DNA of 64,000 bases from an uncultured Actinomycetota bacterium (GCA_963834425.1 CAWIBR010000019.1:56097-120096); one strand, 5' to 3'. Positions 1 through 5,060 are shown, numbered from the stretch's first letter. Numbers and translations are program-made. Notes: a model not told the origin generated them from the sequence alone.

Positions 1-668
<668 letters not shown>

Positions 669-711
669 GGGGGCGAGGCTATCTGGCGCGGGGGCGCGTT
701 CCCAGCGCGGC

Positions 712-1974
712 TCAGGCCGGTACGACGAGTCCCTCGGTGAGCAGCTGCCGGGCCAACCCGAGGTCGTCGGACCCGTTGGCGCTCTGAGGCGTCGGCAGGT
801 CGCCGACCCGGTGGCCCGCTCCGTCCAACAGCGCGACCAGCGCCGGCCGGTCCGTCGCCGGGCGGCTCACCGCGCCGACGCTGGTGACCAGCCGGACCGT
901 CGGGTGGCCGTCGGCCCGGGCGCCGTCCTCGATGCGGGCCTGGGCGTGGCGGCGCAGCCGGATCCTCGTGTCGGCGCTGAGGCCGTTGATCGCATCGAGC
1001 TGGGCGAGTGGGCCGAGGGGCTCCGGCCGGGTGGTGCGGTCGGCCCGGCGGCGTACGGCGTTGGCCGCGTCGCTGCCGGTCGCCGTCGCCAACCGGTCGA
1101 TCAGCGCCTTGACGGTGAGGTCGAGCTCGCTCTGCAACTCGGCCGGGTCGGCCGTGGCGGCGCCGATCGGCAACGACTCCCGCAGCGCGGGCGAGTCGGC
1201 GGCGAGAGCGACCAGCGCCTGCACCAGGTCGTAGCGGGTGGTCGCGTGCATCCCGATGGTCAGGTGAATGGTCGTCTCGCCGAGCGCCTCAGCGCTGTGC
1301 AGCCAGCCGCGGGGCAGATAGAGCGCATCGCCCGGCCGCAGGACCGTGTCGATCACCGGCGGCTCCTGGGCGCGAGCCTTCACGGCGGCGCGGTGGTCGG
1401 TCCAGGGCTGGTCGGCGAGCGGGTGCTCGTGCACCGGGGCGTGGATGGTCCAGCGCTTCTCACCGGAGACCTGCAGGACCAGGACGTCGTGGACGTCGTA
1501 GTGCGCGTCGAAGCCCTGGTTCTCGGCCGGCGTGACATAAGCGTTGACCTGCACGGGGTGCCCCAGGTCGGTGCTCAGCTGCTGGCTGAAGTCGATCAGC
1601 GGCGGCCAGATCCGGTGCAGGCCCTGGAGCACCAGCGTGGCGCCCTGGCCGAACAGCGCCAGCACCTTGTCGTCGGCGACCTGGTCGCCGACGCTCGCAC
1701 CGAGGCCGCCCCCGCGGGTGAAGTCGGCGGCGCCGAGCACCCGGCCCTGCTTGGCCAGCCGCAGGAACGGCGTCCGGAGGCCACGCTCGCTGAGCAGCTC
1801 ATCGACCGCGGCCGGGTTGAGCAGATCGGCGAAGTCCCGCGGCAGCGTCGCGGCGGGTGAGAGCAGCGGTCGCTGGGACCAGTACGTCGCAGCGAACTCC
1901 TCCGGCGTCACGCTCAGGCAGCGCGCGAGGGCGGGGCGGCCGTCGCCGACCGCCCCGCCTCCCGTCGTACTCAT
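712..1974 (-). CDS. JmjC / cupin-4 family Fe(II)/2-oxoglutarate-type oxygenase (ribosomal-oxygenase YcfD/RoxA-like)
   Basis: 420-aa ORF with the double-stranded beta-helix signature [19 protein letters not shown] (HxD) ... [11 protein letters not shown] ... TIHLTIGMH (distal His). It has a long C-terminal helical extension as in cupin-4 proteins. Confidence 0.75.
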
Positions 1975-1989
1975 CTGTGTGCGGCTGGC

Positions 1990-2316
1990 TCAGGCCGAGC
2001 CGTCCGCGCCGCCGTCGTGTCCGGCGCCACCGTCAGCTCCGCCGTCCGCGCCGCCGTCGTGGCCGCCCGGGTTCGCGCCGCCGTCGGCCGGACCCTCGGC
2101 GCCGCCATCGGCTCCACCGTCGGCGCCTGCATCGGCTCCACCATCGGCACCACCGTCAGCCCCGCCATCGGCGCCACCGTCGGCACCACCGTCATGGCCC
2201 GCGCCGCCGTCGGCTCCGCCGTCCGCGCCACCGTCGTGGCCGCCCGGGTTGGCGCCACCGTCAGCCGGACCCTCGTTCGGGTCGGTCCCAGTCGAATCAG
2301 TGTCATCGAGCGACAT
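1990..2316 (-). CDS. 108-aa hyper-acidic Gly/Asp/Ala tetrapeptide-repeat protein, (D-G-G-A)n with interspersed His
   Basis: An ATG is preceded by GAAGGAGG at 6-nt spacing (reverse complement of 2317-2335). The stop lies 15 nt before the JmjC start. Sequence: MSLDDTDSTGTDPNEGPADGGANPGGHDGGADGGADGGAGHDGGADGGADGG...GHDGGADGSA. No signal peptide. The plus-strand (P-P-S-A)n ORF 1544..2347 lacks a start and RBS context and runs antisense through the JmjC gene. Confidence 0.55.
   Translation of the reverse strand: MSLDDTDSTGTDPNEGPADGGANPGGHDGGADGGADGGAGHDGGADGGADGGADGGADGGADAGADGGADGGAEGPADGGANPGGHDGGADGGADGGAGHDGGADGSA
1993..2268 (-). repeat. in-frame 12-nt periodic coding repeat with a nested 177-nt (59-codon) duplication
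   Basis: GAC GGC GGC GCN units run throughout. The blocks 2041-2098 and 2218-2275 (58 nt each) differ at only 4 positions. Confidence 0.85.
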
Positions 2317-2386
2317 GGCGCCCTCCTTCTCGCGTTGGATGTTCTGACCCTAGGAGGCCGGGCCGCGGAGCGCACCCCCGCCCGGG

Positions 2387-2773
2387 TCAGGCGATCCACG
2401 GCGGTACGCCGCGGCTGGTCTCTTCGCCGGGCACCGTCACGGTTGCATCGCCCCGGCCGCAGACGATCAGCCGGCTGGTCGTGGTGGCCGTGATCTGCCG
2501 CCGACGCACCGGCCGGGAGGACGACGGCGTCACCGGCAGCCAGCCCGAGGCGTCGTCGTCGCCGACGGCGATGGCGACCGCTCCCTCGATGACGGTCCAC
2601 AGCTGCTCGCTGGCGAAGACGTGGACCGGGCCTTGCTGGCCGGCGCGCATCTCGACCTGCCACATGCTCAGGGCCTCGCTTCCGCCCTGGGTCGGCGACG
2701 CGAGGGTCGTCATGACGGCGTTCGGCGTTTCGGTCCGTCGCGCCTCGCCCTGATGAATGACGGTGGGAGTCAT
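2387..2773 (-). CDS. small cupin-domain protein (128 aa)
   Basis: Internal ATG of track ORF 2387..3091, at complement 2771-2773, preceded by GAGAGGA. MTPTVIHQGEARRTETPNAVMTTLASP...MWQVEMRAGQQGPVHVFASEQLWTVIEG is typical of a single-barrel cupin. The upstream part of the track ORF would overlap the marR promoter and gene. Confidence 0.7.
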   Translation of the reverse strand: MTPTVIHQGEARRTETPNAVMTTLASPTQGGSEALSMWQVEMRAGQQGPVHVFASEQLWTVIEGAVAIAVGDDDASGWLPVTPSSSRPVRRRQITATTTSRLIVCGRGDATVTVPGEETSRGVPPWIA

Positions 2774-2821
2774 GGCAGCGTCCTCTCGGCTCCTGGGGTC
2801 GGTTGATTCCGTGAGCGTACA

Positions 2822-2847
2822 GTTTAGACAACTCGAGTTGTCTAAAC
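2822..2847. promoter_or_regulatory. perfect 26-bp palindrome, candidate MarR operator in the divergent promoter region
   Basis: GTTTAGACAACTCGAGTTGTCTAAAC is its own reverse complement. It is AT-rich relative to its surroundings. It lies 26 nt upstream of the marR ATG and 49 nt upstream of the cupin ATG. Confidence 0.6.
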
Positions 2848-2872
2848 GTGAGACCGCAGCAGAGGAGGACCG

Positions 2873-3370
2873 ATGCTCGACAATGGCGCCGTGCCCACAT
2901 CGCGTCATGGCTTCGAGCTCCCGCTCCTGCTGCTCGGGGCCTTCCGGGCCTCGATCGACCGGCTGCACGAGGAGCTCGCCGCGGACGGCCATCCGGACGT
3001 CCGGGCGATCCACGGGTTCGCCCTGCAGGCGATCGGCCCGCACGGCGTGAGCATCAGCGAGCTCGGTCGCCGGCTCGGCGTCAGCAAGCAAGCGGCCGCC
3101 AAGACCGCCGCCACGCTCGAACGAATCGGGTACGCCGCGCGGCGGGCCTCAGAAACCGACGCCCGCGCGTGGCTGCTGCACCGCACCGAGCGCGGCGAGG
3201 AGATGCTGCACCTCAGCGCGGCCAGCTTCGCGCGGGAGCGGCGGCGGTTGGTTGGTCAGCTCGGCGCCGCCCGGGTCGCTGCCCTGGAAGACGATCTCGA
3301 AGAGCTGGCGGGTGGCGCTTCCCGGACCGGTTTGGCTGCGTTGTCCGACCTGCCCGGCTGGCTCGGCTGA
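2873..3370 (+). CDS. MarR-family transcriptional regulator
   Basis: 165 aa with a winged-HTH core: ISELGRRLGVSKQAAAKTAATLERIGYAARRASETDARAWLLHRTERG. RBS GGAGG lies 4 nt before the ATG. It is divergent from the cupin operon. Confidence 0.85.
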   Translation: MLDNGAVPTSRHGFELPLLLLGAFRASIDRLHEELAADGHPDVRAIHGFALQAIGPHGVSISELGRRLGVSKQAAAKTAATLERIGYAARRASETDARAWLLHRTERGEEMLHLSAASFARERRRLVGQLGAARVAALEDDLEELAGGASRTGLAALSDLPGWLG

Positions 3371-3403
3371 CCGTAACGCCGACCAGCCGACCCGGAGCGA
3401 GAG

Positions 3404-4240
3404 TCAGGCCGCGGCGAGGGCGGCCAGCACCTCGGAGCACCCCGCGTCGACCCGCAGGGTTGCGAGGTCGTCCCCACGGGTCGGGCCGCGGTTGATGATC
3501 CCGATCGGGATTCCGCGCCGGTGGGCGGCCCGAACGAACCGCAGCCCGGACATGACGGTCAGCGACGACCCGGCCACCAGCAGCGCCTCGGCGTCCTCGA
3601 CCAGGGAGTAGCAGAGCTCGACCCGCTCCTTCGGGACGTTTTCGCCGAAGAAGACGACGTCGGGTTTCAACACCCCGCCGCAGGCCTCGCACGGGACGAC
3701 AACGAAGCTCTCGATGCCGTCCACGACGGCGTCCCCGTCGGGAGCGATGTCGGGCGAGATCCCTTGTCCGAAGCCGGGGTTCGCCGTCTCGAGCCGCTCA
3801 TGCAGGCGCAGCCGGTCGGTCCGCTCGTGACAGTCCAGGCAGATGACCAGGCTGATCCGGCCGTGCAGGTCGACCACCTGACGACTGCCCGCAGCCTCGT
3901 GCAGGCCATCGACGTTCTGGGTGATCAGCGCCGTCAACCGACCCGAACGCTCCATCGCGGCCAGGGCCCGATGCCCCGGGTTGGGGTCGGCCCGATGCAG
4001 GAGGCGCCAGCCGATGTGACTCCGCGCCCAATACCGTTGCTGGGCAAGGGGTCCCGAGCAGAACTCGGCGTACGTCATCGGGGTGCGTTTGGGCGACAGC
4101 GGTCCGCGATAGTCCGGGATGCCCGAGTCGGTGGACAGACCCGCCCCGGTCAGGACGAGGGGACGACGCCGGCCCAGCAGGCGGATCAGGTCGCAGGCGT
4201 CGCCGAGGGCCACCGGCGAGGTGACTGAGGTCTCGAGCAC
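3404..4240 (-). CDS. NAD-dependent protein deacylase, Sir2 family (class II / SIRT4-like)
   Basis: Motifs GAGLSTDSGIPDYRG, ITQNVDGLH, a Zn ribbon CLDC...CEACGG, and GSSLTV. GTG start. Confidence 0.85.
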   Translation of the reverse strand: MLETSVTSPVALGDACDLIRLLGRRRPLVLTGAGLSTDSGIPDYRGPLSPKRTPMTYAEFCSGPLAQQRYWARSHIGWRLLHRADPNPGHRALAAMERSGRLTALITQNVDGLHEAAGSRQVVDLHGRISLVICLDCHERTDRLRLHERLETANPGFGQGISPDIAPDGDAVVDGIESFVVVPCEACGGVLKPDVVFFGENVPKERVELCYSLVEDAEALLVAGSSLTVMSGLRFVRAAHRRGIPIGIINRGPTRGDDLATLRVDAGCSEVLAALAAA

Positions 4241-4350
4241 CCCGCCAGGCTACGTCGCCCGGCGCGGTCCCGGTGGCGGCTGTCGGAGGCCTGGGCCACG
4301 ATCGGACTGCCCACCCGGGTGGAGCTCGGCCGACCGAGAAAGGATGCGCC

Positions 4351-4930
4351 GTGACTGAGGTGCTGCTGTTCCATCATGTGCGAGGACTGACCCCAGGCGT
4401 CCGCGAGTTCGGCGACCGGCTGACCGCCGCCGGGCACACCGTCCACGTGCCGGACCTGTTCGAGGGCCGGGTCTTCGACAGCATCGGGTCCGGCTCGGCC
4501 TACGTCCAGGAGATCGGCTTCGACGAGATCATGGCGCGCGGGCGGGCGATCGCTGAGGAGCTGCCGAGCGACCTGGTCTACGCCGGGATCTCCCTCGGTG
4601 TGGTCCCGGCCCAGATGCTCGCCCAGACCCGAGCCGGGGCCCGCGGCGCGCTGCTCCTCGAGGCCTGCCTGCCGCCGTCGGAGTTCGGCGGCGCGTGGCC
4701 GGCGGGCGTGCCGGTGCAGATCCACGGGATGGACGCCGACGACTTCTTCGCGGGCGAGGGTGACCTCGAGGCGGCTCGCGGCATTGGTCGAGGAGACGCC
4801 CGATGCGGAGCTCTTCCTCTACCGCGGTGACCAGCACCTCTTCACCGACAGCAGCCTCCCGTCGTACGACGAAGGGGCGGCCACCCTGCTCACCGATCGC
4901 GTCCTCGCGTTCCTCGCGGCCGTCGGTTAG
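4351..4930 (+). pseudogene. dienelactone hydrolase family protein, frame-disrupted as sequenced
   Basis: GTG at 4351 follows GAAAGGA. The N-terminal part (VTEVLLFHHVRGLTPGVREFGDRLTAAGHTVHVPDLFEG...GEGDLEAAR) is in frame 1. The C-terminal part (ALVEETPDAELFLYRGDQHLFTDSSLPSYDEGAA...) is in frame 2. The junction needs removal of one G near 4779-4780. Confidence 0.7.
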
Positions 4931-5060
4931 GCCAGCGACCGGACTCCTTCAAGCGGGCACCACGACGTTCCCCGTAGGGGCGAGCCGACGGCCGATGCTG
5001 GATGCTGGGGTCAACGACGTTGCCCACGCTGTCGCTCGACGGCCGGCCAGGAAGGGACCG

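Follow-up and report, generated by a model that had tools for sequence, protein, structure and literature searches.

Genes and features of the locus

The window analysed here, a 64,000-nt stretch of DNA from an uncultured Actinomycetota bacterium, carries three minus-strand genes encoding a 128-aa small cupin (2387-2773), a 108-aa hyper-acidic Gly/Asp repeat protein called as the (DGGA)n ORF (1990-2316) and a 420-aa JmjC Fe(II)/2-oxoglutarate (2OG) oxygenase (712-1974). The gaps measure 70 nt between the cupin and repeat ORFs and 15 nt between the repeat ORF and the JmjC gene, as described in an earlier reading of this DNA made from the sequence alone (the sequence-only reading), whose listed features were all confirmed at the positions it gave. 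A divergent gene for a MarR-family regulator (2873-3370, plus strand) lies beyond the cupin gene, and on the other side the 5' part of glyA, encoding serine hydroxymethyltransferase (SHMT; 1-668, minus strand), begins 43 nt past the JmjC stop codon.

The leader 5' of the repeat gene (2317-2386, minus strand) contains the Shine-Dalgarno (SD) sequence GAAGGAGG at 2329-2322 and a conserved CTCCTAGGGTC element. The strong SD attributed to the repeat ORF by the sequence-only reading is present, but at a distance of 5 nt, not 6 nt, from the ATG at 2316. The CTCCTAGGGTC element includes TAGGGT (2352-2347), a candidate actinobacterial -10 box, and may act as a promoter; a sigma-70 consensus scan found nothing, and no significant RNA structure was detected in it either. 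The last ~55 nt of the leader are conserved in two relatives, L001 (JmjC 90% identical to that of the window, repeat protein 100% identical) and L083 (JmjC 80% identical), and in L083 a SIR2 gene stands upstream instead of the cupin gene; as judged from these alignments, the ~55-nt leader travels with the repeat gene and not with the cupin gene. At the other end of the repeat gene, the spacer between its stop codon and the JmjC ATG (1975-1989, minus strand) is 15 nt long and holds no SD-like sequence, and the flanking ORFs lie in one reading frame, which suggests that the repeat and JmjC genes are co-transcribed and, possibly, translationally coupled.

The repeat gene and its product

Gly makes up 40% of the repeat protein, Asp 20% and Ala 19%; its pI is 4.05, and Lys and Arg are both absent. 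It contains 16 DGGA tetrapeptides, His residues at positions 27, 41, 86 and 100, and the N-terminal motif MSLDDTDS. An internal duplication of 34 aa is present (copies 33/34 identical), the two 34-aa blocks each reading (N/A)EGPADGGANPGGHDGGADGGADGGAGHDGGADG with plain DGGA units between them. Comparison of the window repeat gene with that of L001 revealed 24 nucleotide differences, 24/24 at codon position 3, with 0/109 amino-acid changes, whereas a reading in any of the other five frames gives between 3 and 24 differences or runs into stops; an excess of synonymous over non-synonymous changes was also found in 11 further repeat-gene pairs from other lineages. Because the differences between the window and L001 are all synonymous and the other frames change or stop, the (DGGA)n ORF is, on this pattern of substitution, a real gene on which strong purifying selection acts. 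AF2 modelling of the repeat protein (mean pLDDT 51.7, pTM 0.15) yielded no secondary structure, and the protein is predicted to be intrinsically disordered. It has no signal peptide, and no family model in Pfam or NCBIfam matches it. The acidic repeat gene is often overlooked by gene finders.

Conservation of the pair across Actinomycetota

A set of 80 species loci was assembled, of which 78 had enough upstream DNA to be tested. The sequence-only reading had stated beforehand that absence of the repeat ORF from syntenic loci would refute its idea; the search of these neighbourhoods for repeat ORFs 5' of cupin-4 homologues found a homologous repeat ORF directly 5' of the JmjC homologue in 78/78 syntenic loci, from Microbacteriaceae, Kribbella, Cellulomonas, Mycobacteriales, Pseudonocardiales, Geodermatophilaceae and Thermoleophilia. 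Conversely, a JmjC gene was found downstream of the repeat ORF in 7/8 independently retrieved cases, directly 3' in Salinispora and in all of the metagenome contigs that extend far enough (6/6); the exception is one Actinoplanes member of the repeat family with no adjacent JmjC gene. Proteins of this family have an N-terminal DDDDITT-like motif, of the (I/L)xDDD(I/M)TT type, followed by 2 to ~20 units of ~EGPADGGANPxGHDGGADG, in canonical form G-E-G-(P/T)-A-D-G-G-A-N-P-x-G-H-D-G-G-A-D-G-(S/G)-A. The D-G-G-A-D-G core is invariant over 279 units, and the pattern EGxADGG...DGGADG is invariant phylum-wide. The four regularly placed His residues singled out by the sequence-only reading are present in the window and yet prove to be a local feature: His is lacking in many members of the family (L031, L055, L023 and L060 among them) and so cannot be the general modification site, while no variation is seen in the pocket of the enzyme.

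Of the canonical repeat-family starts, 55/56 have an SD-like core in front of them, against a background of 12%. Spacers in the other loci are mostly 6-60 nt, counted from the stop codon of the repeat gene as far as the JmjC tblastn match, which begins at query residue 1-21 and hence not at the true JmjC start codon. Together, these comparisons support the repeat ORF and the JmjC oxygenase as a dedicated conserved pair in the Actinomycetota loci sampled. The sequence-only reading knew of no described system with such an architecture, and our literature search likewise found no paper describing the pair.

The JmjC oxygenase

The profile searches that the sequence-only reading had called for gave clear matches for the 420-aa protein (Pfam JmjC_2, E 1.7e-28; Cupin_8, E 2.2e-11), but for the 128-aa cupin only a weak Pfam match (Cupin_2, E 0.067). 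The HxD...H triad noted in that reading is intact: the Fe ligands H158, D160 and H226 align to the triad of NO66, and the 2OG-binding Lys is K173. In a PDB profile search NO66 was matched at E 3.5e-28 over residues 24-413. The AF2 model (pLDDT 88.5, pTM 0.82), in which a helical block spans 247-330 and the C-terminus forms an alpha/beta domain, returned NO66 (E 4.6e-25), MINA53, YcfD and YxbC as its top Foldseek matches, those to NO66, MINA53 and YcfD being full-length. The model is that of a ribosomal-oxygenase (NO66/MINA53/YcfD) fold, made up of JmjC, helical and C-terminal winged-helix domains. To our knowledge, characterised members of this fold all act on ribosomal proteins. Tight grouping with the ribosomal L16 Arg hydroxylases, which the sequence-only reading had regarded as adverse to its proposal, was not observed; NO66 is the nearest relative, at ~22% identity only, and YcfD is weaker. 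Across 78/78 loci there is no variation at H158, D160, H226, K173, Y146 and other residues of the pocket, and the fold and catalytic residues of the enzyme are intact.

The substrate His of NO66 and MINA53 is bound by a pair of residues, Tyr328 and Ser421 in NO66 and Tyr167 and Ser257 in MINA53 (PMC9994133). Mapping of these columns, carried out manually on the HMM alignment with the NO66/MINA53 residues taken from that paper, showed that the Tyr is kept (Y146) and that the Ser position is occupied by an invariant Gly (G241) in the present enzyme family. It is conceivable that the enzyme is nonetheless a ribosomal oxygenase proper, with a basic loop of uL2, uL15 or uL16 as its target, the acidic repeat protein serving as an adaptor, a pseudo-substrate inhibitor or an rRNA-mimicking escort. 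Its closest solved relatives are all ribosomal-protein hydroxylases, the repeat protein is polyanionic and disordered, there is a loose resemblance between the unit DGGANPGGHDGG and the loops GGGNHQH and GNAGGLHHH of the NO66 and MINA53 substrates, and MINA53 is potently inhibited by substrate-analogue peptides (PMC9994133). However, the phylum-wide invariance of the repeat pattern is more specific than a generic polyanion requires, the His-binding Ser421 of NO66 is replaced by Gly, and distant members of the clade adjoin unrelated small Asp-rich peptides and lie within RiPP clusters, not beside ribosomal genes; on balance, we consider this partner role unlikely, though deserving of some weight.

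The MarR and cupin genes

The MarR-family gene (Pfam MarR_2, E 1.7e-10) and the small cupin ORF are treated here as context only. A perfect 26-bp palindrome, GTTTAGACAACTC followed by GAGTTGTCTAAAC, lies at 2822-2847 between the marR and cupin start codons, as the sequence-only reading had observed together with the divergent marR gene. By analogy with the MarR family, it is probably the MarR operator for the divergent marR/cupin pair; in L001 the palindrome is imperfect. The cupin ORF is open, but DNA alignment with its L001 orthologue revealed +2 and +1 nt indels, so that ~45 nt (about 2503-2552), covering the 'GDAVVLPAG' motif (motif 2), are out of frame relative to L001, where the orthologue reads ...GDDAVELAAGDAVVLPAGAVRRITAT. 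The 128-aa ORF does not retain both motifs of a small Cupin_2 protein intact.

MarR and the cupin were seen together only in the window and L001, and neither neighbours the pair in any of the species loci (0/80). In L083 and L082 (JmjC 68% identical) the order is SIR2, repeat ORF, JmjC and SHMT, without MarR or cupin. As they are missing from relatives that keep the pair, MarR and the cupin stand outside the module; synteny indicates that MarR, the palindrome and the damaged cupin form a separate two-gene cassette, a lineage-specific insertion upstream of the pair. What is conserved is an actinobacterial gene module, not a MarR operon, and the proposals that the pair belongs to a MarR-gated operon and that the small cupin is part of the system could not be upheld. 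For the window genome itself, a ligand-sensing MarR might still gate a single cupin-repeat-JmjC transcript serving one pathway, given the co-directional genes, the short gaps, the perfect palindrome at the divergent marR promoter and a 70-nt gap in which no terminator was detected and through which transcription could read. This arrangement is improbable in view of the absence of MarR and cupin in closer relatives keeping the pair and in 80/80 species loci, of a repeat-gene leader older than the insertion, and of the scrambled cupin frame in the window.

Conserved neighbours and possible metal handling

The gene called 3' of the JmjC gene in L001, L082 and L083 is SHMT, and the window glyA sits where most Actinomycetota carry a gene for a Suc_Fer-like, thioredoxin-type ferredoxin. 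The latter lies 3' of the JmjC gene in 75/80 species loci; it is absent from the window and not adjacent to the pair in the window lineage. Besides the Suc_Fer-like gene, no neighbour is common to more than 11/80 species loci, and no conserved exporter, protease or metal-related neighbour was found across the 80 chromosomal loci.

Both conserved neighbours of the repeat gene encode iron proteins, and the repeat protein could be a cytoplasmic buffer or metallochaperone for Fe(II), Ca(II) or another metal, working alongside the iron enzyme and the [2Fe-2S] ferredoxin and itself receiving no covalent modification. Its high acidity, its regularly spaced carboxylates and its frequent His residues are compatible with such a role, as are the NicO metal transporters near the locus in L082 and L083. 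No fold or defined site is predicted for the repeat protein, however; His is dispensable in the family, the unit fits neither an RTX nor an EF-hand type pattern, and the NicO linkage is limited to one clade. A purely metal-handling role is accordingly given a low probability. An RTX/beta-roll (GGxGxDxUx nonapeptide) was rejected: the sequence repeats every 4 aa (12 nt), or every ~22-24 aa if the long unit is taken, it offers no hydrophobic position, and the AF2 model has no strands.

Proposed function

We propose, giving the idea roughly an even chance, that the repeat protein is the dedicated multivalent substrate of the JmjC enzyme and probably undergoes multi-site Asp hydroxylation. The disordered hyper-acidic protein, encoded directly 5' of an NO66-like oxygenase, would be expressed together with it; the oxygenase would take Gly-flanked D-G-G units into its active-site groove and hydroxylate one side chain at many sites along the protein, the target most probably being the invariant Asp, converted to beta-hydroxy-Asp, and not His. 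Asp is favoured by its invariance and by the precedent of FIH and AspH, and the conserved N-terminal motif, rather than the Asp of the units, could be the true modification site. The resulting poly-hydroxylated polyanion would be intracellular and could plausibly bind metal or take part in O2/2OG-dependent regulation, and the Suc_Fer-like thioredoxin-like [2Fe-2S] ferredoxin encoded 3' in most Actinomycetota would probably act as redox partner.

The substrate role is supported by the conserved pairing in both directions, by the invariant enzyme pocket, by the small Asp-rich ORFs that also precede distant plasmid homologues, by the precedent of JmjC enzymes acting on co-encoded peptides (BipG, CzlI) and by the Gly-rich substrate loops of NO66 and MINA53; genomic linkage alone would fit a partner, regulator or chaperone equally well. 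Counted against the substrate role are the ribosomal substrates of the enzymes of this fold characterised so far, the missing Suc_Fer-like partner in the window, the lone Actinoplanes member and the lack of any neighbour hinting at function. In its fullest form, the proposal is that an NO66-like JmjC enzyme, assisted by the ferredoxin, poly-hydroxylates the (DGGA)n protein, yielding an intracellular poly-(beta-hydroxy-aspartate) polymer that serves as a metal binder or as a reporter of O2, 2OG or iron status, in a widely conserved, unannotated system; this extended version is possible, if doubtful. If it is correct, the repeat protein would be the first substrate outside the ribosome to be genetically dedicated to an enzyme with the ribosomal-oxygenase fold, and a new class would be added to the modified intrinsically disordered proteins.

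Relation to known systems

NO66/RIOX1 and MINA53/RIOX2 share with the present enzyme the JmjC, helical and winged-helix domains, the HxD...H triad, the 2OG Lys and the Tyr corresponding to NO66 Y328, NO66 being the best match in both sequence and structure. Their substrates are Gly-rich loops, GGGNHQH and GNAGGLHHH, with the first His of each as the substrate residue (PMC9994133). Unlike NO66, the present enzyme is bacterial and chromosomally paired with an acidic repeat protein, usually also with a ferredoxin, and its substrate is probably non-ribosomal. YcfD/RoxA, the uL16 Arg81 hydroxylase of E. coli and Rhodothermus marinus, is likewise bacterial and has the three-domain ribosomal-oxygenase fold, but stands further from the present enzyme than NO66 does (E 1e-7 to 8e-16, 16-23% identity). 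The main text of Iyer et al. 2010 (PMC2938197) places the bacterial MINA/No66-like clade, YcfD included, in a proteobacterial neighbourhood with pseudouridine synthase, mnmA and purB, and describes neither a small acidic ORF beside that clade nor a JmjC/(DGGA)n pair. It does report a similar logic, in which 2OG dioxygenases adjoin predicted Gly-rich, collagen-like repeat substrates; those enzymes are, however, of the classical 2OGFeDO beta-hydroxylase or phytanoyl-CoA type, and the repeats are secreted collagen-like tripeptides with sulfotransferases nearby. The proposed multi-site action can be likened to that of FIH, a JmjC hydroxylase that targets the beta-carbon of an Asn, Asp or His residue and does so at many corresponding positions of ankyrin repeats (cited in PMC9994133), although FIH belongs to another JmjC subfamily (Foldseek E ~1e-8) and its substrates are folded repeats, neither co-encoded nor acidic and of low complexity.

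BipG (biphenomycin) and CzlI (curacozole) are JmjC enzymes acting on a small ribosomal peptide encoded at the same locus (PMC12707348, PMC11575548). Their clusters are sporadic antibiotic loci with leader/core precursors, proteases and transporters, CzlI being YxbC-like, whereas the present module has 2-3 genes, is phylum-wide and its 'precursor' is a repetitive polyanion. Such tailoring enzymes nevertheless raise the question of a classical RiPP, in which every repeat would act as a core peptide, to be hydroxylated and then excised for export as a small peptide with bioactive or metal-chelating properties. The multi-core repeats, the conserved 'leader-like' N-terminal motif, the winged-helix domain of the enzyme and a small precursor-like gene adjoining a putative modifying enzyme in 78/78 loci would suit this, PF08007 proteins have RRE-like winged-helix domains with bacterial homologues in RiPP-like contexts (PMC12710340), and genes for a peptidase and an ABC ATPase are found close to plasmid homologues. 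Yet protease, transporter and other tailoring genes are conserved in none of the 80 chromosomal loci, the module is vertically conserved phylum-wide in core-genome contexts, unlike typical biosynthetic gene clusters, and the repeat protein lacks a signal peptide. This is the most improbable of the readings weighed here, and the RiPP-like natural product suggested by the sequence-only reading finds no conserved protease or exporter to go with it.

The plasmid loci of Streptomyces and Kitasatospora (pSCL4 and others) resemble the chromosomal pair in that a full-length JmjC homologue (29-35% identity) is preceded by a small Asp-rich ORF. They differ from it in being sporadic, in having single-copy peptides, and in their accessory genes for aldo/keto reductase, kinase, S9 peptidase and ABC ATPase. 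The peptides include ...TPSDGGGTGRSDGND, ...ADNDPSDPPIAIADPDPFDPVI and ...PADDNNNNDSG, one of them in a TOMM/thiopeptide-type cluster, and two end in SDGGGTGRSDGND, which has the D-G-G element in common with the repeat family.

The repeat ORF is a genuine gene

The locus comprises three minus-strand ORFs, namely a cupin-like ORF of 128 aa (2773-2387), a repeat ORF of 108 aa (2316-1990) that follows after 70 nt, and a JmjC oxygenase ORF of 420 aa (1974-712) that follows after a further 15 nt, together with a divergent MarR gene (2873-3370) separated from the cupin by a perfect 26-bp palindrome (2822-2847). This arrangement had been described in an earlier sequence-only reading and is present in every particular. 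It is bordered by the 5' end of glyA (minus strand, from 668 to the edge of the window), 43 nt past the JmjC ORF, and, beyond the MarR gene, by a minus-strand gene encoding a SIR2-family NAD-dependent protein deacylase (3404-4240; NCBIfam PRK05333, 328 bits). The repeat protein consists of 40% Gly, 20% Asp and 19% Ala, with basic residues absent and a pI of 4.05. It contains 16 DGGA tetrapeptides and four His residues, and two copies of a 34-aa block (33/34 identical) flank a plain DGGA run.

Spurious ORFs are abundant in high-GC genomes, and in this genome, with a G+C content of about 72%, several long ORFs overlie the repeat stretch on both strands. The window was compared with L001, a metagenome contig with the same gene order and a JmjC protein 90% identical to that of the window. 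Across the 327-nt repeat ORF the two differ at 24 positions, 24/24 of them third codon positions in the DGGA frame, and the encoded proteins are identical. A six-frame test of the same pair gave 23-24 residue changes in each of four other frames; the antisense frame that shares the wobble positions showed 3 residue changes and has two stops in L001. A chance ORF or antisense artefact was rejected, as the plus-strand ORFs over the repeat (e.g. 1544-2347, 'PPSAPPS') and an alternative minus frame ('TVAPTRAA...', the gene caller's pick in L001) fail this test. A third-position synonymous excess was likewise observed in eleven pairs of related species, with 23 synonymous versus 1 non-synonymous difference in a Cellulomonas example. 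An SD-like core lies ahead of 55/56 canonical family starts versus 12% of random 15-mers, a comparison in which the choice of starts carries some selection bias. In the window, the Shine-Dalgarno sequence GAAGGAGG reported in the earlier reading is present, at a distance of 5 nt from the ATG and not at the spacing claimed. The 108-aa repeat ORF is a genuine gene.

Codon usage in the repeat gene is unusual, with a GC3 of 0.72 versus 0.94 for the JmjC gene (genome genes about 0.94) and 0.91 for the alternative frame, and with many GGT, GGA and GAT codons; this probably lowers DNA-level identity among the repeats. It also accounts for the gene call in L001, which lies in the wrong frame over the repeat gene and whose end overlaps the JmjC gene as ATGA. 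A profile search recovered 109 members of the repeat family among 1.84 billion cluster representatives versus over 6,000 clusters (90% identity) for the enzyme clade, in keeping with gene callers overlooking or misframing the repeat gene. That annotation pipelines have largely overlooked these genes is new, and it exposes a systematic gap in which they are missed or misframed by gene finders. No Pfam or NCBIfam model matched the repeat protein, no curated family or paper describing the repeat/JmjC pair was found in a non-exhaustive literature search, and following up 'BatC protein', the name given to two database entries, gave nothing relevant.

The repeat and JmjC genes are conserved as a pair

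One genome per GTDB species was scanned with an enzyme profile, giving at least 600 matches. The best 80 loci, with JmjC proteins 49-57% identical, belong to Microbacteriaceae, Kribbella, Cellulomonas, Mycolicibacterium, Gordonia, Dietzia, Rhodococcus, Actinokineospora, Modestobacter, Cryptosporangium, Brachybacterium, Terrabacter, Jatrophihabitans and Thermoleophilia MAGs. Among these best 80 of at least 600 matches, every locus with sufficient upstream sequence (78/78) has a family ORF on the same strand that ends just ahead of the JmjC gene; the distance to the point where the JmjC tblastn match begins is mostly 6-60 nt. The ORF is missing from none of these loci, and the core idea of the sequence-only reading, a repeat protein paired with the oxygenase, withstands the conditions set there for its refutation. 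In the reverse direction, a JmjC gene lies 9 nt downstream of the repeat gene in Salinispora and is present in 6/6 metagenome contigs with room downstream; 9/120 matches of the metagenome DNA-pattern scan for HDGGADG were real, most of the hits being due to chance. A diverged family member with no adjacent JmjC gene occurs in Actinoplanes (L086:5001-5207, GCA_900119315.1). This copy, which reads MALNEQEIISSDP...NPLGRDGGADG... with His replaced by Arg or Gln, is flanked by a GGDEF gene on one side and by an AraC/DJ-1 regulator on the other.

In the window, the repeat and JmjC ORFs share a reading frame and are separated by TGA and five codons (ASRTQ), with no SD-like sequence in this gap (1975-1992). 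Read-through of the repeat-gene stop codon would yield a repeat-JmjC fusion protein; the spacing is different in other lineages. Apparent fusions among JmjC homologues were rejected as Rosetta-stone evidence, P0275, P0246, P0305 and P0310 being frameshifted read-through artefacts and P0005 and P0035 having long N-termini from which repeats are absent.

The partner enzyme has a ribosomal-oxygenase fold

In the profile searches suggested in the earlier reading, the 420-aa protein matched Pfam JmjC_2 (E 1.7e-28) and Cupin_8. Against PDB sequences, the top match was human NO66/RIOX1 (E 3.5e-28, residues 24 to 413 aligned), with MINA53, Rhodothermus YcfD, B. subtilis YxbC and E. coli YcfD ranking behind. 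AlphaFold modelled the enzyme with confidence (pLDDT 88.5, pTM 0.82), and Foldseek returned the same order with full-length alignments. Human ribosomal oxygenases have many bacterial homologues, among which YcfD is, to our knowledge, the sole one with a known substrate. The Fe ligands are H158, D160 and H226, while K173 and Y146 correspond to the 2OG-binding Lys and Y328 of NO66; all of these, as well as N144, T148, R222, H237 and T239, are invariant in 78/78 loci (best 80 of at least 600 matches). Ser421 of NO66 hydrogen-bonds the substrate His (PMC9994133), whereas the window enzyme family has an invariant Gly at that position. Judged by its modelled fold, its intact residues and this Ser421-to-Gly difference, the enzyme is a ribosomal-oxygenase-fold protein with a predicted competent active site and a pocket unlike those of His hydroxylases.

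Repeat units and the candidate target residue

Members of the repeat family begin with M-x-(I/L)-(N/D)-D-D-D-(I/M)-T-T, the clade of the window having MSLDDTDS where others have DDDDITT, and frequently end in ...HDGGADGSA. They usually carry three units, the extremes being two and about eight long units alongside plain DGGA runs, and their overall length is 58-242 aa. In canonical form a unit reads G-E-G-(P/T)-A-D-G-G-(A/S)-N-P-x-G-H-D-G-G-A-D-G-(S/G)-A, of which D-G-G-A-D-G and A-D-G-G are universal (invariant in 279 units), as is the N-terminal acidic motif. The four His residues singled out earlier are indeed present in the window protein, but His is not conserved across the family, being Arg in Micromonosporaceae, Ser, Thr or Gln in Kribbella, and absent altogether in several members. 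The Kribbella versions (L014, L020, L029, L034, L041, L043, L048, L049, L051 and L069) are GGS/GGY-rich, reach 225 aa and all terminate in GNSGSW, which holds the only Trp of the protein. Pocket residues of the enzyme do not co-vary with the His or non-His repeat type; the sole discriminating column, position 325 (T/Q), lies outside the active site and is confounded by phylogeny.

AlphaFold predicted no structure for the repeat protein (pLDDT 51.7, pTM 0.15), and RTX-like calcium repeats were ruled out by the repeat period and the predicted disorder. A role as an unmodified metal buffer is improbable. Should the repeat protein serve as substrate, modification would be expected on an invariant residue, and Asp would be favoured because it is the only invariant residue with chemical precedent, FIH and AspH both making beta-hydroxy-Asp.

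A putative enzyme-substrate module

In 75/80 species loci (L002-L081; best 80 of at least 600 matches), the JmjC gene has a same-strand neighbour about 100 nt downstream (e.g. L004:1529-2329) that encodes a Suc_Fer-like (PF06999) thioredoxin-type ferredoxin with the motifs CxxxxxxxCC and SHVGGDRFA. This ferredoxin gene is absent from the entire 64-kb window. In L001, and in L083 and L082, two relatives with JmjC proteins 80% and 68% identical, glyA and not a Suc_Fer-like gene comes after JmjC.

Plasmids of Streptomyces and Kitasatospora carry full-length enzyme homologues (29-35% identity) that are preceded by small Asp-rich ORFs (L207:3850-3996, L209:3338-3496, L212:3258-3404, L211:2117-2272 and L208). 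The small ORF of S. clavuligerus pSCL4 reads MDDKKTSLEPDEIEVIPPVSTPDFVIADNDPSDPPIAIADPDPFDPVI and lies close to genes for an S9 peptidase and an ABC ATPase; two related peptides with C-terminal TPSDGGGTGRSDGND are each followed by an aldo/keto reductase; in Kitasatospora, an acidic 51-aa ORF lies ahead of the homologue; and one distant homologue is embedded in a TOMM/thiopeptide-type cluster. These plasmid loci look like uncharacterised RiPP-like loci, and the D-G-G element shared with them may provide a lead to a recognition motif. In 2025, a survey covering RiPP recognition elements noted that RRE-like domains occur in fusion with JmjC proteins of PF08007 and that bacterial homologues are found in RiPP-like contexts (PMC12710340); among JmjC enzymes, BipG and CzlI act as hydroxylases of precursor peptides encoded with them (PMC12707348, PMC11575548). 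Among the indirect arguments for the repeat protein being a substrate, the strongest is that genes of this enzyme clade habitually lie behind one for a small Asp-rich peptide. Alternatively, the enzyme may act on a ribosomal protein, in keeping with its fold, and the repeat protein may be an adaptor, pseudo-substrate or escort for that substrate, which we consider possible but unlikely.

There is, in our estimate, about an even chance that the repeat protein and the JmjC enzyme form a dedicated enzyme-substrate module. In such a module, the disordered repeat protein would be translated from its strong SD, and the JmjC gene, 15 nt on and missing an SD of its own, could be coupled to it. The oxygenase would then hydroxylate the D-G-G repeats in a multi-site fashion, with the ferredoxin supplying or restoring reducing equivalents in most species. 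The modified polyanion would be retained in the cell, since signal peptide, exporter and protease are all absent; a classical exported RiPP is very improbable. The kind of enzyme is known, as is the logic of a hydroxylase encoded beside its peptide. New are the family of repeat partners, the conservation of this family in the sampled Actinomycetota loci, and its association with both an enzyme of the ribosomal-oxygenase fold and a Suc_Fer-like ferredoxin. With a candidate substrate that is strictly co-encoded, the biochemistry of this entire orphan clade becomes open to direct testing. If multi-site Asp hydroxylation is borne out, it would establish a new class of modified, disordered proteins, and JmjC chemistry would be tied to iron/redox partners in Actinomycetota, which include major antibiotic producers and relatives of pathogens.

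MarR, cupin and the upstream leader

The proposal of a MarR-gated operon that includes the cupin did not survive comparison with relatives. L083 and L082 have the order SIR2, repeat ORF, JmjC and SHMT, with MarR and cupin absent, and 0/80 of the best species loci (of at least 600 matches) have MarR/cupin neighbours. The last 55 nt or so ahead of the repeat-gene ATG are kept in the window, L001 and L083 although the upstream gene differs; this leader holds CTCCTAGGGTC and the SD, and TAGGGT within CTCCTAGGGTC fits the actinobacterial TANNNT -10 pattern. Since MarR and cupin are missing in relatives that keep the pair, and the leader is constant despite the different upstream gene, the comparison indicates that the two are an inserted two-gene cassette outside the module, and the palindrome (2822-2847) is most simply its putative operator. 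No match to Rfam families was obtained in window positions 1-5000, no sigma-70 consensus promoter or intrinsic terminator was found, and the RNA structure of the repeat-gene leader was not significant (z = -0.11). No terminator or significant structure was found in the gap after the cupin, so read-through from the cupin is possible; a three-gene MarR-gated operon functional in this one genome, which would be compatible with the other alternatives, is nevertheless improbable given the relatives that lack both genes.

Relative to its L001 orthologue, the cupin carries +2 and +1 nt indels about 45 nt apart (window 2503-2552), its ORF is still open, and the motif 'LAAGDAVVLPAGA' of L001 reads 'WLPVTPSSSRPV' in the window. 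This scrambling is either a compensated frameshift (decay) or an assembly error, and in the latter case further window genes may hold indels. The glyA (SHMT) gene is split into two ORFs in L001:7300-8600 and L082:7258-8690 and is whole in L083, which suggests indel errors in the first two assemblies. The SIR2 gene is the upstream neighbour of the pair in the clade of the window (L001, L082 and L083) and not elsewhere, and NicO metal-transporter genes adjoin it in L082 and L083.
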